A stretch of 64,000 bases of DNA from contig CM126223.1 in NCBI GenBank assembly GCA_052327205.1, positions 23,498,001 to 23,562,000 on the forward strand, in the 5' to 3' direction. Under the pieces are notes generated by a model, which was given only the letters and a program-made list of their open reading frames with translations, was not told where the DNA came from and made no database searches. The position numbers were made by a program, and so were the translations under genes. This document shows positions 31,801 through 40,800 of this stretch, piece after piece (position 1 is the first letter of the stretch; every line of letters starts with the position of its first letter). Source of the DNA: Somniosus microcephalus (Eukaryota).

Positions 31801-34800
31801 AATGATAACCAGAGTGTGACAGAAGGGACAGAGTGTATAGACATAAGGGCGCATCAGAAAGAGGGGTCAAAGTAGGGAAAAATGGTAAAGAAGACAAAAT
31901 TAAAAGCTCTATATCTGAAAGCACGCAGCATTCATAAGATAGATGAGTTGACAGCACAAATAGAAATAAATGGGTATGATCTGATAGCCATTACAGAGAC
32001 GTGGTTGCAAGGTGACCAAGGCTGGGAACTGAATAGTCAGGGGTATTTGCCATTTCGTAAGAATAGGCAGAAAGGAAAAGGAGGTGGTGTAGCTCTGTTA
32101 ATAAGGGATGAAATCAGTGCAGTAATGAGAAATTATATTGGCTTCGAAGATCAAGACGTAGAATCAGTTTGGGTGGAGATAGAAATCATAAGGCCAAGAA
32201 GTCACTGGTGGGAGTGGTCTACAGGCCCCCAAACAGTAGCCATACTGTAGGACAGAGTATAAATCAAGAAATAAGAGAGGCTTGTAAGAAAGGTACAGCT
32301 ATACTCATGGGAGATTTTAATCTTCATATTGATTGGACAAAGCAAATTGGCTACGGTAGGCTTGAGGAAGAGTTCTTAGAGTGTATAAGGGATGGTTGCT
32401 TGGAACAATACGTTGTGGAACCAACCAGGGAGAAGACTATTTTTAGATCTGGTAATGTGTAACGAGGCTGGATTAATTAATGATCTCGAAGTGAAGGATC
32501 CTCTTGGGAAGAGTGATCATAGCATGGTAGAATTTCAAATTCAGTTTGAGGATGAGAAAGCTAGGTCTCAAACTAGTGTCCTGAATAAAGGTAATTACAA
32601 AGGTATGAAGGCAGGCTTGGTTAAAGTGGGCTGGGAAAATGTTACAGGGCAAGACTGTAGAAAAGCAGTGGCAAACATTTAAGGAGATATTTCATAACGC
32701 TCAGCAAAGATATATTCCAGTGAGAAAGAAAGACTCTAAGAGAAGGATGAACCATCCGTGGCTAACTAAGGAAGTAAAGGATGGTATCAAATTGAAAACA
32801 AAAGCATAATGTTGCGAAGAATAGTGGAAGGCCAGAGGATTGGGAATTTTTTAAAAAACCAGCAAAGGATGACTAAAAAAGATAGCTTATGAGAGTAAGC
32901 TAGCAAGAAATATAAAAACAGACAGCAAGAGCTTCTACAGGTATATAAAAAGAGTAGCTAAGGTAAACATTGGTCCCCTAGAGGAAGAGTCTGGGGAATT
33001 AATAATGGGAAACAGCAAAATGGCGGAGACTGTGAACAAATATTTTGTATCGGTCTTCATGGTAGAAGACACAAAGCATCCCAATAATGGATAACCAAAG
33101 GGCAATTGGGGTTTTGGGGGGGGGGGGAAAAAGGGGGGGAGAAAGAGACTTAAAACAATCACTATCACTAGAGAGAACTAATGGGACTAAAGGTGAACAA
33201 GTCCCCTGGACCTGATGGCCTGCATCCTGGCGTTTTAAAAAGAGGTGGCTGCAGAGATAGTGGATGCATTGGTTGCAATCTACCAAAATTCCCTGGATTT
33301 TGGAGGTCCCAACGGACTGGAAAACCGCAAATGTAACACCCCTATTTAAGAAAGGAAGACAGAAACCAGGCAACTGTCGACCAGTTAGCCGAACATCTGT
33401 CATTGGGAAAATGCTGGAGTCCATCATTAAGGAAGTGGGAGCAGGACAATTAGAAAATCATAATATAGTCAAGCAGAGTCAGCATGGTTTGATGAAAGGG
33501 AAATCATGTTTGACAAATTTGCTGGAGTTCTTCGAGGGTGGATAAAGGGGAACCGGTAGATGTCATGTATTTGGATTTCCAGAAGGCATTCGATAAGGTG
33601 TCACATAAAAGGTTACTACACAAGATAAGAGCTCATGGAGGTGGGGGTAATATATTAGCATGGATAGAGGATTGGCTAACTAACAGAAAACAGTATCGAG
33701 ATAAATGGGTCATTTTCAGGTTGGCAAACTGTAACTAGTGGGGTGCCTCAGTGACCAGTGCTGGGGCCTCAACTATTTACAATCTATATTAACGACTTGG
33801 ATGAAAGGACCGAGTGTAATGTAGCCAAATTTGCTGATGATACAAAGATAGGTGGGAAAGCAAATTGTGTGGAGGACGCAAAGAATCTCCAAAGGGATAT
33901 AGATAGGCTAAGTGAGTGGGCAGGAATCTGGTAGATGTGGGAAAATGCGAGGTTATCCACTTTGGTAGGAAAAATATAAAAGCAAAATTATTTAAATGGG
34001 GAGCGATTACAAAATGCTGAGGTACAGAGGGATCTGGGGGTCCTTGTACATGAATCAAAGTTAGCATGCAAGTACAGCAAGTAATTAAAAAGGCAAATGG
34101 AGTGTTGGCCTTTATTGCAAAGGGAATGGAGCATAAAAGTAGGGAAGTCCTGTTACAACTGTACAGGGCGCTGGTGAGACCACACCTGGAGTACTGCATA
34201 CAGTTTTGGTCTCCTTATCTAAGGAAGGATATACTTGCTTTGGAGGCAGTTCAGAGAAAGTTCACGAGGTTGATTCCCAAGATGAAAGGGTTGTCTTATG
34301 AAGAAAGATTGAGCAGGTTAGGCCTATACTCACTGGAGTTTAGGAGGGGGGATCTTATTGAAACATAAGGTTCTGAAGGGGCTTGACAGGGTAGATGCAG
34401 AGAGGATGTTTCCCCTTGTGGGGGAATCTAGAACTAGGGGGCATAATTTCAGAATAAGGGGGGCACCCATTTAAAACGGAAATAAGGAGGAATTTCTTTT
34501 CAGAGGGTCGTGAATCTTTGGAATTCTCTACCCCAGAGAGCTGTGGAGGCTGGGTCATTGAATATATTTAAGGTGGAGATAGACAGATTTTTGAATGGTA
34601 AGGGAGTCAAGGGTTATGGGGAGTGGGCAGGGAAGTGGAGTTGAGGCCAAGATCAGATCAGCCATGATCTTATTGAATGGCGGAGCAGGCTCGAGGGGCC
34701 AAATGACCTACTCCTGCTCCTACGTCTTATGTTCTTTATTATCCACAGCTGAACAGCCTGTTATTCACTTTCTAGGCTCACATGGAAAATGGCCAGTTGG

Positions 34801-37800
34801 CTGAGGTGCCAGAGGGCTGCCAGCATCCATGTAACTGCACCCCAGGATGAGGAGAGAAAAACATTAAGCAGTTTGAATATCTACACAGCTTTATTGTTAT
34901 AGAGATTCTAGGATATAAAGAGAGATATTTCCTGATGTATTCTTTTGCTAAACCTCAGCGGTGGAGCATTTCTTTTAATTCATTTGATTAAGCAAGCACA
35001 GCTGAAACTACAGAAAAAACAAAATCGAGTAGACACTTCCTTTGTACACTCCCATATTCTACATTAATACATTTCATTCTGCGTGAATTAAATAACCCAA
35101 GATATACTTTAACGCGTTGAGTACAAATCAGGTTAAAAACACTGGACAGAGCATAGTCATGAAATGTAATTAAGTTTGACAAGTCTCTTAACCATAGAAC
35201 ATAGGCCACAAAGACAAACTTCACCCCAAATTTTGCCTTACCTTCCTTTTCCTGCAACACTTTTTTAATTCTGTCAAGACCGGCTTTCTTTTCGGAGTCC
35301 ATATCATCCGCTGTAATGGTGTACCCTAGCTCTAGCGGAGGATGCTGAAGGAAAGAGGCATTCAATCAGCAGAATAATCTTTTATCAATTCATTTTCTCA
35401 GCAACTTGAAAGAGAAACAAATTTATACTGCTAAAAGTACAAGCGGTGCTGGGGTTATAATGCTATTTTACAGGCATCAGTGTCAGTTTTGCTCAGTTGG
35501 CAGCATAGACATAGAAACATAGAAGATAGGAGCAGGAGTAGGCCATTCGGCCCTTCGAGCCTGCTCCGCCATTCAATGAGATCATGGCTGATCATCCAAA
35601 TTCAGTACCCTGTCCCTGCCTTCTCCCCATATCCCTTGATCCCTTTAGCCTCAAGAAATATATCCAACTCTTTCTTGAATATATTTGATGAACTGGCCTC
35701 CACTGCCCTCTGTGGCAGAGAATTCCACAGGTTCACCACTCTCTGGGTGAAGAAATTCCTCCTCATTTCAGTCCTAAATGGCTTACCCCTTATCCTTAGA
35801 CTGTGACCCCTGGTTCTGGACTCCCCAGCCATCAGAAACATCCTTCCTGCTTCTAGTCTGTCCAGACCTGACAGAATTTTATAGGTTTCGATGAGATCCC
35901 CTCTCAATCTTCTAAACTCCAGTGAGTATAAGCCCAATCGACGCAATCTCTCCTCGTACGTCATTCCTGCCATCCCAGGTATCAGCCTGGTGAATCTTCG
36001 CTGCACTCCTTCCATGGCAAGAATGTCCTTCCTCAGATAAGGCGACCAAAACTGCACACAATACTCAAGGTGTGGTCTCACCAAGGCCCTGTACAACTGC
36101 AGCAAGACATCCTTGTTCCTGTACTCAAACCCTCTCACTACGAAGGCCAACATACCATTTGCCTTCTTAACCGCCTGCTGCACCTGCATGCTTACCTTCA
36201 GCGACTGGTGCACAATAACACCCAGGTCTCGTTGCACTTCCCCTTCTCCCAATCTATTGCCATTCAAATAATAATCTGAAAGGAAGAGTGACCCCGACGT
36301 GATGTGAACACGCAGCCTTCTGATCTCTATCATCTCAGAGTCAGACGGTTGTGGGCTCAAACCCCACTCCCAAAACTGTAGAAAATTTAGACAGGCACTG
36401 CAATGCAGTACTGAGGGAGTGACGCATTGTTGGCAGTGTTTTTGGCAGATGAGACTTTAAACCAAGGCCCAGTCTGTCTGTTTAGTTGAATGCAAGAGAT
36501 CTTATGGCACCATTCAAAAAGGAGCAGGTCGTTCTCCCAGTCAACATTTATCCCTCAACCAACACCACTAAGAAGTGGCCATTTATCTTGTTTGCTGGTT
36601 GTGGGACCTTGCTGTCTGTAAATCTGTTGCCACATTAGCCTACATGACAAGAGACTAATTCAGTGCCTGTGAACCCGCGGGATGCCGCGAGGACATGAAA
36701 GGCAGTATGTAAATGCATGCAATTTAAAATAAATCCAATCAACTGCTGTTCAGTAAAAACACTGAACTCTACAAGTTCATTGCAAAACATTTGTTGCACT
36801 ATTTCCCATATCATGTGCAGTGTATTGGCGATCTTCTAAAGGTGAACAATTAAATTTATAAAAAGTAACAATGCTCCTTCCTTGCCTGAAAGCAGTGACA
36901 TGCTGAGGTATAGCCCCAGTTGCGGTGGGATTTTACCAAAGTAGTTATTCTTCATGAGCGAGTTAACACGGTGAATGTCCATAAACTATTAATCATAGTT
37001 TGCATCATAGTCAACCACACCCTGACCTCATTCAACGTCCATGCATGCTCACATTCCAGTAGCAGGCAACGAACAAGTTAGGAGCAGAAGCGCTAATGCG
37101 CTGATATTTCTTAATCCAGGGGCAATGACGTCAAATCACAGTGGCATGTCTGCTCTTCATTTTATTTGGTTCTAAAAGATGATGGGTTATCTCATTTAAC
37201 GGATTGATTTTAGCTACGAGTTACTATGAGCAGTGGAATAGCTCGGAAATCAATTAACAATAAGCAGCATAATACTCAACCAGAGTAAGCTGATCGCCTT
37301 TGCGTTTCGATAGGAGAGGAATCTTCCGTTTCCGTTTTCCATCACCCTCCGAGGGAGAAGAGTCCACTATTGAGGGTGGCATTTTTGACAATGGAGACAC
37401 TGTTTCTAGAAACAGAAGAGAGAGTTTTATATCAATAGTTTCTTTTAAAAATCAAAAAAGCCTATTCCAGGTTAGGATTAGTGTTGTCAAGGTATCGGTA
37501 CCGAAGTGCCACAGGAAAAAAGGAAATGTGTTAATTCGTTACTTGTGTACTCTTAATACACCACCACCCCCTGTATAAAGGGAGAGAGAAACTGGGGTGG
37601 GAAATGGGGCTTGTGGCATTCATTTTCACCATGACAGTGCAGAACAGGTTTAATGGTCTTTTCCTGTCCGCCATTTTTGTTTGTATATGCATTAACCTAC
37701 ATATAATATATCCATATTAAAATCCATCTGTCACATCTCAGCCTATCTGAATTCTGAGTCTCTGAGATAGCAATGTCCTTCATACTGGTTACCTTCCCAC

Positions 37801-40800
37801 AAAGCTTCAAGTCAAGTCATCAGCAAATGTAATGGTACAAAACCCTCGTCATCATTCACTAACATTGTGGAGAAACAGGGGTTCCCGGGAAACATTTTTT
37901 TTGAAACAAGAATCTTTTGAACATTTAAAATCCTTCAAGATTTTGCGTAACACAACTTCCATCTATGTATTATAGCTGATTTAGCCCAGTTTACTGTAAC
38001 TGGAACTTTTCAGACTTCCTTGATGAAAACTGCAGTGTAAATTCCATTCAATATATCTGCCATATCCTCAGCATCTTTAACATTTCCATCCAATTTATTC
38101 TTCAATGGATCCATTCACAGAATCACAGAAACCCCACAGTGCAGATAGAGGCCATTTCGGCCCATCGAGCCTGCACCGCCACATATCCCACCCGATCCCC
38201 GTAAACCCACGTATTTAATCCCCCTAACACTAAGGGTCAATTTATCATAGCCAATCAACCTAACCCGCACATCTTTGGACTGTGGGAGGAAACCGGAGCA
38301 CCCGGAGGAAACCCACGCAAACACGGGGAGAATGTGCAAACTCCACACAGACAGTCACCCGAGGCCGGATTCGAACCCGGGTCCCTGGCGCTGTGAGGCA
38401 ACAGTGCTAACCACTATGCCACCATGCGATTAAAACAGTAGCAAAACTGCGTATTCCTCGAGCACTCCTGGGCAATTTGTTTTTCTATTGCTCTCATTTC
38501 AACTACCCGCAGTGGCACTTGGTATTTCTGGTGATTTTACGGTTCCTTCCACTCCATCAACCCACTCCAGGCTAGATCTTGCTAGATTTCAATTTTTAAC
38601 AAGAGAATATTCTTGCTTGCCCCATCCTGTAGAATAGCTTTTAATACATTCAATTTTACCTCATTTTATTTTTCAGATAGTTCACCTAAATCTGTGGAAC
38701 ACTCTCATCTGGAAGTATACATTTTTAGCAGTATTACATTAACGTTACAAGAGAGCTGGCAGCTTGTTCAGAATTATTCAGTTTGTTTAAAATAAGGTTA
38801 GTATGCAGTGCAGAGCTGGGTGTGCACCTCCAGAATAGTACCTCCCCTACAAATGGAAGTGCTACTTTAAACAGGTTCCAGATAACAGGTCTGGGAAGCA
38901 GCATGGTTTAAACTGGCAATATGAGAGGGATATGCTGAACCCTCTCTAGCAACCAGAGACACTTCTGGCAAGGCTGGGCAGAGGTGCATAAAAATCCACA
39001 CAACAGGTTCTTTGGCAAGCCCTATAAGGGGCTCTGCTGCAGCATAAAGCTGCTTACCACCACCACACACCCCCCCCCCCCCCCCATTCTGCAGGATGAA
39101 TTTAACATTCTCACCTACTCCTGGACTCATGTTAGTTAGTTGTCTATGCGGCAGGGAGCTACTTCAGGAAAAGCAGTGTCCAGTCAGGAGGTAAGAGTGG
39201 GGAGGAAGAGAGGGTAGTGCCAGGGATGTGCTCTCGGGTTAGTTCTAGAATAATGTGGTCTTAAAGCTGAGCCACGCTACAGCCTCATTGAATCCCTCGG
39301 AGGACTGGCTGATTAACATGAATAGAATGCCAGAACTCCAAGTAACCCATAACGCACAGAAAGGAATAGGAATCACTGATTTGGAAGGCAAGGCAGAGGG
39401 AAGTCCTTTTGATGCTCAAAGATGGAGAGCATAATGTGGAAGCTCCCTTCTGGAAATCTGGGATGATGAAGATTAGATGCTCCTTGGCAAGTTCGCAAGA
39501 TACTCAAGGACAAGGCAGGCTACTGGATCAATCCCAATTCAATCGTTCTGAAAGAGGCTACAGACACCACCCATTGATGCATCCAATTGTTTCTTCAACT
39601 ATTCCAGGGATTTTGCCTTTGCTGCTATGCCTCGAAGTTCATTCCAAGTGCCGATTACACACTGAGAAGAAGAACGACCCGATATTTAACGATGTTTAAT
39701 TTAAAGCAGTATTCTGAGTAAACCTTTTCCGCACCATTTATTATGTAGAAGATCATTCCTCAGTTGCCTCCTTTCCAAGTCTCTCCAGTCTTTTCGCATC
39801 ACTCAGGTCCCTGACACGAGGGATCAATTTTGTGGATCCTGCACTGCCTCCAGCCTTTGAATGTCTTTTCTGTTTCTCAGCAACCACAACTGGACATGAC
39901 TAAAGATGCAGTCTGACCAGAGCACTGTGATAATGACTTCCTCTGACTTATATTCTACTATTTTGGCTATGTAGCTCAACATTCTATTGGTTGCTACTCT
40001 GTACTGGTTACACACATGAAACATCCAGTCTACCAAGACTCCTAGGTCTCTTTCAACTTCATGGCTAGCTATTGCAATACCGCTCACGGAATGGATATGC
40101 AACCTATTGTTCCTTCATGTGTCATACATTTGTCGTCATTAAATTTCATCTGCCAATGTTCAACCCATTCACACCTTTTGTTTAATTCATTCTGCAATTT
40201 CTGGACGGCCTCTTGCAATTCCACTGCCCTACCTAATTTGGTATCACCTGCAAACTTGACAAATGTGCATTCAGTTTCTGAATTCAAGTCGCTGCAGTAA
40301 ATTAGAAACAGTAGTGGTCCCAGCACCGAGCCCTGTGGCACCCAACTCAGAGCTTCCCCCACCATGACATTAATCCCTTAACCAGCACCGGTTGTTTTCA
40401 GCCCGTCGGGCAATTTCCTATCACCGTGAATCCCCTAGCTTTGAACTCGACTAGTAACCTCTTTTATGGAACTTTATCGTAAAGCCTGTTGGAAGCCTAA
40501 GTGCACAATGCTGTAGGGTTGGTTTGTCACTCCCTCAAAGAAACCAAGGGGGTTGGGCTGGCAGGAGTTGTCAATGTTCCCCCTAAGGTGCGTGGCTGTG
40601 CGCAGGCCGCTCACTAGCGATGCTGCTGGAAGAGAAATGATGCATGTGTAGCCACTGCAAATTAAAGGGCCCGCGCAGGGGAAAAACAAATTGGAGGGGA
40701 TATTGTATATCATCACTTAAAGCCTCGTTACCGGTTTACTAGATTGCTGTTGTATAGATACTCCTCAAATTTACTCCCGATAATGGAGTCCATTATTTTA

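Follow-up and report, generated by a model that had tools for sequence, protein, structure and literature searches.

A truncated CR1-type LINE that begins with a tRNA-Trp 3′ piece and a gene trailer, inserted as one unit into a tRNA-headed SINE

The window, by which we mean the whole 64-kb stretch of DNA that was analysed (G000:C22:23498001-23562000, in a genome of 6.4 Gb whose repeat types suggest a shark), carries a chimeric retro-insertion in which the copy of a cellular RNA lies directly 5′ of a 5′-truncated LINE, in the same orientation. The insert consists of a dead CR1-type LINE and 48 nt of tRNA-Trp sequence, and it probably arose in one event, when the reverse transcriptase jumped onto the U-rich 3′ end of a pre-tRNA. 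It is a single copy that landed blunt in a site still empty in relatives, it includes a genomic trailer, and fusions of this kind recur in the genome, joined at terminators.

Architecture of the insertion and its empty site

Read on the minus strand, the locus runs from a host SINE, reaching to 36327, into a 38-nt tRNA piece (36326-36289), a 10-nt pyrimidine-rich stretch (36288-36279) and a CR1-type element that starts at 36278 and extends to 35506. The sequence and coordinates given for these parts in the first-pass annotation were correct. The tRNA piece corresponds to tRNA-Trp(CCA) and spans it from linear base 35 (of 72) up to and including the discriminator base, and the 10 nt are a tRNA-gene 3′ trailer with a T-run at its end. 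The CR1 part, truncated at 36278, contains the C-terminal 224 codons of ORF2 with their stop, open in translation (35602-36276, minus strand), followed by the 3′ UTR and a short tandem-repeat tail (35506-35601, minus strand; the tail itself at 35529-35506). On the plus strand, the host is represented by a 5′ piece (35480-35505), which continues in homologous copies and in the empty orthologous site, and by the remainder (36327-36620), which is colinear with it. The total insert measures 821 bp (35506-36326).

Contigs from relatives depart from the window at 35505. In organism A, one contig each from the public runs X1, X3 and X5 leaves at this position into the host SINE, and 29 of the 30 letters displayed past 35505 are identical to window positions 36327-36356; X1 and X3 represent one sample and X5 another study. 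One contig of organism C (X7) also skips the insert, with a few bases missing. Run X6 has no cover of the left flank. Comparison with the empty site revealed neither a target duplication nor a deletion. As the host SINE is uninterrupted at the relatives' empty site, the insertion of the 821-bp unit was blunt, and the earlier proposal that the tRNA piece and the CR1 arrived as one insertion is upheld by this site and by the colinearity of the host on both sides. The two bases at 35505-35504 are compatible with both the tail unit and the host target, which leaves a blunt join with a 2-nt match between tail and target and no enclosing duplication. Insertion that leaves the target unaltered has been described for non-LTR elements (PMC4494074). 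The filled 5′ junction is spanned by a contig of X8 (36251-36568) with one difference; 28 letters lie on the CR1 side, against a tool threshold of 31, and X8 may perhaps be the source sample.

The host, a putative Deu-SINE, is a high-copy, plus-strand SINE that was hit in its tRNA-like head. The family is old, with 3237 candidates in the genome and best copies 71-76% identical among 40 scored. Most of 14 homologous host copies read through the insertion point; some have indels of their own, and one has 2 extra bases.

Origin of the tRNA-Trp piece and its trailer

The 38-mer had been assigned to tRNA-Trp(CCA) by its match to the vertebrate sequence, and the genome's own genes confirm this: it differs at one position in 38 from the 3′ end of ARAGORN-called tRNA-Trp(CCA) genes (37/38), and it finds 204 genomic matches at ≤2 mismatches, versus 0 for the reversed control. 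Its first base is the last anticodon base. Box B is present, box A is absent and no CCA follows. ARAGORN, and Rfam over 33000-39000, reported no tRNA at the locus; the piece is too short. The 38-mer belongs neither to the CR1 nor to the host SINE: the CR1 family continues with CR1 sequence at 36278 (in L107 and in 103 and 99 contig loose ends), and host copies cross the site uninterrupted. The first two bases of the piece, read as host sequence, would move its start to base 37; the empty site lacks them. They may have originated by slippage at the target end. Annealing through a 9-nt identity between host and tRNA, located 5′ of the break, was also rejected, as it predicts a loss of host bases and all of them are present.

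Where a mature tRNA would carry CCA, the piece continues into the 3′ flank of a tRNA gene, as had been suggested from its pyrimidine content: the 10 nt lie 1-2 mismatches from tRNA-Trp gene flanks, and a trailer match at ≤2 mismatches is expected by chance with a probability of about 0.007 (17 trailer classes, uniform base model). The test that had been called decisive, a tRNA-Trp gene with the exact 10-nt trailer, came out negative in the assembly. A 23-nt query made of the tRNA end and the trailer has a single exact match genome-wide, the window itself, which settles the question of a unique or an amplified junction in favour of a single copy. With one mismatch allowed, it matches 22 loci, all of them tRNA-Trp-derived cluster loci and none an intact CCA gene; 15 consist of the 3′ half only, after a CR1-like insertion, 7 have a mutated anticodon, and all run on into gene flank, not into CR1. 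Three intact genes (L060, L067 and L086) match at 45/48 positions, with the trailer at 2 mismatches. Their T4 terminator occupies +7 to +10, and its last T, at +10, coincides with the window junction. Each of the window's three differences from these genes, including the T-loop change, is present in some member of the flank family; it is therefore possible that the actual source had only three T's at its end, a weak terminator. The source is probably a member of this family that is unassembled or has since been converted. As the window copy has no leader, its origin from RNA rests on the 10 nt and on analogy to other loci.

The 15 loci with only a 3′ half, located on C38, were considered as a source and rejected, as the first two bases mismatch. 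Two of them, retrieved in full, each proved to be an entire gene divided by a CR1-like insertion of 3.7 kb in antisense. In these (L344 and L345; G000:C38:1604800-1613500 and 1993000-2002000), the insertion interrupts the anticodon arm and is flanked by a 3-bp duplication, and the split gene was then multiplied within the cluster (15 such loci). More generally, C38 (1-17 Mb and 45-47 Mb) contains large tandem tRNA arrays with many anticodon-mutated copies, with periods of ~3.7-4.4 kb for Trp-Val-Leu-Lys and ~2-4 kb for Lys/Glu; tRNA-Glu alone has 663 matches genome-wide. C19:56.9-57.1 Mb is listed beside C38 among the array locations, and the U6 array has a period of ~4.8 kb.

The CR1-type partner

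The CR1 part is 95.8-96.4% identical to the nearest copies compared and is therefore young. We take it to be CR1 from its tail and from its C-terminal motifs. A Pfam search with the 224-codon ORF2 end, a fragment downstream of the RT domain, gave no match above cut-off, and the first Atlas hit was a "reverse transcriptase family protein" at 0.93, weak by the tool's recognition value. L158 has no long open frame for the RT domain. The tail is a short tandem repeat without poly(A) and resembles the 8-bp CR1 microsatellite of PMC5729268; Zenon elements carry poly(A) (PMC13343379).

Census of dispersed tRNA copies

We surveyed dispersed copies of tRNA-Trp, Leu, Val, Lys and Glu outside the C38 clusters with patterns for their 3′ ends, exact except at CpG; counts are based on the matches listed, mostly from contigs up to C38. 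L051 and L280 entered the census via other searches, the pairs L100/L101, L280/L281 and L324/L325 were each counted once, and the repeat references were taken from the loci themselves. For tRNA-Val(CAC), each of the 45 pattern matches lay within the C38 cluster, which left no dispersed copy. Among the matches listed, 45 distinct loci were obtained including the window, and in 14 of these a CR1-type or SINE match in sense begins ≤45 nt from the tRNA end, with none in antisense. Without the window and the ambiguous L315, 12 of 44 loci (Trp 16, Leu 9, Lys 7, Glu 12; again among the matches listed) are chimeric. The background for such a match is 0.79% of positions, which gives P ~1e-15; with two self-referenced loci removed, the count is 10/44 (P 2e-12).

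The partner is a CR1-type element in five chimeras (L051, L107, L156, L209 and L323), a member of one SINE family, presumably HE1-like, in five others (L100, L152, L316, L324 and L326), and another SINE in two (L314 and L319). In five chimeras, the tRNA part is joined to the very first bases of a SINE, of one family in all five. CCA is found in 0/12. The 5′ end of the tRNA is kept, near full length, in 11/12; the only other half among them, L326, lacks everything before base 40, which lies in the anticodon stem.

For chimeras with a known source class, similarity to the gene flank extends no further than the first T-run of that class, ending there or shortly ahead of it. It ends at +9 to +12 in the Leu and Glu chimeras and at ~+27 to +33 in those of the Trp class with its first T4 at +31, to which L051, L100 and L280 were assigned by eye, the best-scoring genes of the script having an earlier T-run. 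On the upstream side, flank similarity ends within 0-13 nt. L209 and L314 end in T-runs, their source genes being absent from the loci compared, and the trailer match of L107 is weak. Boundaries of this kind, at start sites and at terminators, suggest primary Pol III transcripts. Both parts lie within one target duplication in L051, L107 and L156 (4-6 bp) and in L280 (15 bp); most others have none that is clear. The proposal that CR1 captures nascent pre-tRNA is thus borne out in its general part, by recurrence at 12/44 listed loci mostly joined at the terminator, and falls short in its particular one, the exact source gene for the window not having been found.

Two loci of other kinds were noted in the course of the survey. 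L104 (G000:C8:254236835) is a pre-tRNA-Trp copy without a partner, inserted in another SINE, with a 4-nt leader, a short duplication and a 33-nt trailer that ends at the terminator. L322 (G000:C13:176733807) lies inside a CR1 3′ end and consists of a tRNA-Glu 3′ part, its flank and then tRNA 5′ bases, an order that looks circularly permuted.

Fusions involving other small RNAs

Of 48 U6 matches, 25 loci were examined, and in seven of these (L260, L261, L263, L265, L266, L269 and L275) a CR1-type or SINE match in sense begins ≤60 nt from the U6 end. Several of the U6 parts are 5′-truncated. At L280 (G000:C24:7909340), a full tRNA-Trp with a 30-nt trailer is joined to U6 bases 1-99, two Pol III RNAs in one insertion inside the 15-bp duplication, with no LINE sequence; the machinery was probably L1-type. 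L281 (C39:6075769) is a 99.5% duplicate of this locus.

A separate group of seven loci (L099, L102, L103, L105, L284, L286 and L287) comprises dispersed 3′ pieces of mature tRNA-Trp with CCA, joined to LTR-like ends. They start at linear bases 26-46, two of them at 37, as though more of the primer had been copied than the usual 18 nt, and a stop of the reverse transcriptase at modified bases is a possibility for these pieces. L099 lies between two inverted copies of the same LTR-like end, and L103 is flanked by a 20-nt direct repeat.

Mechanism of the insertion

For the window, target-primed reverse transcription would have started in the head of the host SINE, with the 2-nt match between tail and target. 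The enzyme would have copied 773 nt of CR1 RNA up to a break or stall, and then, needing hardly any homology or none, jumped end to end onto the 3′ terminus of a tRNA-Trp transcript that had terminated but was still unprocessed, perhaps aided by non-templated A's pairing with the oligo-U end. After copying 48 nt, it would have dropped off in the anticodon arm, and the cDNA end would have been joined blunt to the target. An end-to-end jump fits better than ligation: template jumping by the R2 reverse transcriptase requires non-templated additions, mostly A (PMC8857657), and such A's would, we infer, pair with oligo-U ends. Against this, in the R2 assays an A overhang of at least 3 nt was nonproductive for jumping, and ligation is cited for human L1 (PMC8857657). 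The CR1 begins with a CAG triplet, which the source flank has one base further on, and for the window's copy a homology-guided internal switch would hence also be possible. The lack of an assembled gene with the exact trailer and the lack of a target duplication at the window speak against our explanation.

The 5′ break had been attributed either to a cleaved tRNA half or to an RT stop. The first of these is weakened by the 11/12 chimeras that keep their 5′ end and by L326, which breaks in the stem, and ordinary 5′ truncation is more likely, roughly twice as much so as a nuclease-cut half. A cleavage preference of the RNase A type would suit the window's break, which lies between anticodon C and A. 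Given that full-length copies dominate and that the window is one case only, such a cut is indistinguishable from ordinary truncation.

The two RNAs could instead have been ligated first. RtcB or another ligase would have joined a pre-tRNA, or a cut half, to a CR1 fragment with a 5′-OH, and retrotransposition would have followed. Ligation before reverse transcription was shown for human U6/L1 (PMC6789731). The window junction is compatible with such a join, having little or no homology and falling at a T-run, the 5′-truncated CR1 could carry a 5′-OH, and U6-CR1-type fusions are present in the genome. Against this, pre-tRNAs would end in U-OH, and the five joins at SINE first bases and the one at U6 base 1 involve RNAs expected to lack a 5′-OH, their ends presumably being triphosphate or capped. 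RtcB needs a 3′ end with a cyclic phosphate or phosphate and a 5′-OH, and performs poorly with a 3′-OH or a 5′-triphosphate (PMC6789731). Since five joins fall at an intact SINE 5′ end, RT template jumping is favoured over RtcB ligation, two routes that the first-pass annotation had placed side by side; with several partners joined at native 5′ ends, we regard ligation as unlikely.

A capture from DNA, or from within a longer transcript, also seems improbable. In this scenario, the CR1 cDNA end would have copied 48 nt from tRNA-Trp cluster DNA or from a long read-through transcript, maybe guided by a near-matching CAG. It would account for why no T4 gene shows the exact trailer. In the source flank family, ACAG or CCAG directly follows the T-run, the CR1 starts with CAG, and more than 200 tRNA-Trp-like loci, many of them transcriptionally dead, exist in the genome. 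However, the CAG match is one base out of register for most source classes, 12/12 chimeras are in sense, and the other chimeras start a few bases from the tRNA start and stop at terminators, neither of which is predicted by random capture.

It is very improbable that the two parts were inserted separately, with the tRNA piece later hitting the very 5′ end of a CR1 already in place, or with the order inverted. Both parts are missing from the relatives, so an intermediate state could have existed, and the window has no shared target duplication. Separate insertion would nevertheless need a second hit at the same base without loss or duplication, while 12 other loci show the architecture, against a background of 0.8%, and a single duplication encloses both parts in several loci. 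Least credible is a truncated copy of an amplified, SINE-like tRNA-Trp/CR1 family, a reading largely refuted at ≤1 mismatch in the 23-mer: L107 and L051 are other tRNA-Trp-CR1 fusions with the same young CR1 family, but they have different trailers and CR1 breakpoints, the exact tRNA end with trailer occurs only in the window, and the one-mismatch loci continue into gene flank.

Implications for the origin of SINEs

How a tRNA head first meets a LINE tail is a standing question of SINE origin, usually inferred from finished families. The window, with its empty site, is one clean accident whose value lies in the series that it forms with its 12 siblings. Together they point to the substrate, a terminated and unprocessed pre-tRNA, and to template jumping as the likely route. 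The CR1 enzyme normally copies only RNAs that have its own tail. We lean, with some reserve, towards the view that in this lineage the enzyme routinely jumps end to end onto the oligo-U ends of nascent Pol III RNAs, and that the dispersed young tRNA copies, about a quarter of which are chimeric among those listed, many with full boxes A and B and a tail of CR1 or SINE sequence, represent a fossil series of proto-SINEs. If true, such a countable series of unamplified proto-SINEs would make SINE birth by template switching testable, and separable from RtcB ligation.

Similar fusions would be raw material for tRNA-headed SINEs. At the window, the features of a tRNA-derived SINE are lacking, both an intact pair of boxes A and B and amplification with a shared junction. 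Since box A is missing, Pol III is predicted not to transcribe the copy, which cannot itself found a SINE; it is an evolutionary dead end, and full-length siblings such as L323, L107 and L152 are the informative proto-SINE candidates. Chimeric tRNA copies also inflate tRNA gene counts.

Comparison with known systems

Known systems include U6/LINE fusions, human tRNA/L1 fusions and a proposed tRNA-CR1 fusion; the variant with sense pre-tRNA as cargo and CR1 as machinery was not found catalogued in the searchable literature. Likewise, no survey of sense pre-tRNA/CR1 fusions with trailers was found in the literature covered, subscription papers lying outside that coverage.

Chimeras of U6 snRNA with L1, L2, RTE and SINE partners have been ascribed to template switching (Doucet et al. 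2015, PMC4476161). The window resembles them in that a Pol III RNA in sense precedes a truncated LINE, to which their set adds the SINE of a LINE (PMC4476161), and differs in its cargo, a pre-tRNA with trailer. In the platypus L2 chimeras, the small RNA is usually 5′-truncated and duplications measure 1-9 bp; for CR1, that paper gives only one unresolved U6 candidate, from turkey (PMC4476161). The same source cites the "tailless" pre-tRNA retropseudogenes made by L1 (Schmitz et al. 2004, as cited in PMC4476161), which share with L104 a precursor tRNA as template and, unlike the window, have no LINE attached. RtcB-ligated U6/L1 RNA also has its junction at the oligo-U end, and its formation needs a cyclic phosphate and a 5′-OH (PMC6789731), whereas several partners here are joined at native 5′ ends.

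Human tRNA/LINE-1 chimeras were described at 21 loci, mostly as antisense 5′ halves (~nt 1-37), and explained by twin priming (PMC11838501). As in the window, a half-length tRNA piece and a LINE form one insertion (PMC11838501); unlike these chimeras, the window piece is a sense 3′ half with a genomic trailer. The terms "pre-tRNA" and "CR1" are absent from the main text of that paper (PMC11838501).

Template switches have been invoked for SINE heads (Kojima 2015 and 2018), and double template switches have been described (PMC2104539). For CR1, the first-pass annotation had known of no earlier description; Suh et al. (2017, PMC5729268) had in fact already proposed that PittSINE arose from a tRNA-Asp-CR1 chimaera formed by template switching. 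Our reading agrees with that model in that the CR1 reverse transcriptase switches to a tRNA and gives a tRNA head on a CR1-derived tail. The origin of PittSINE was inferred from an amplified family, whereas the loci described here are single, unamplified events with trailers and, at the window, an empty site and a tRNA piece without box A.
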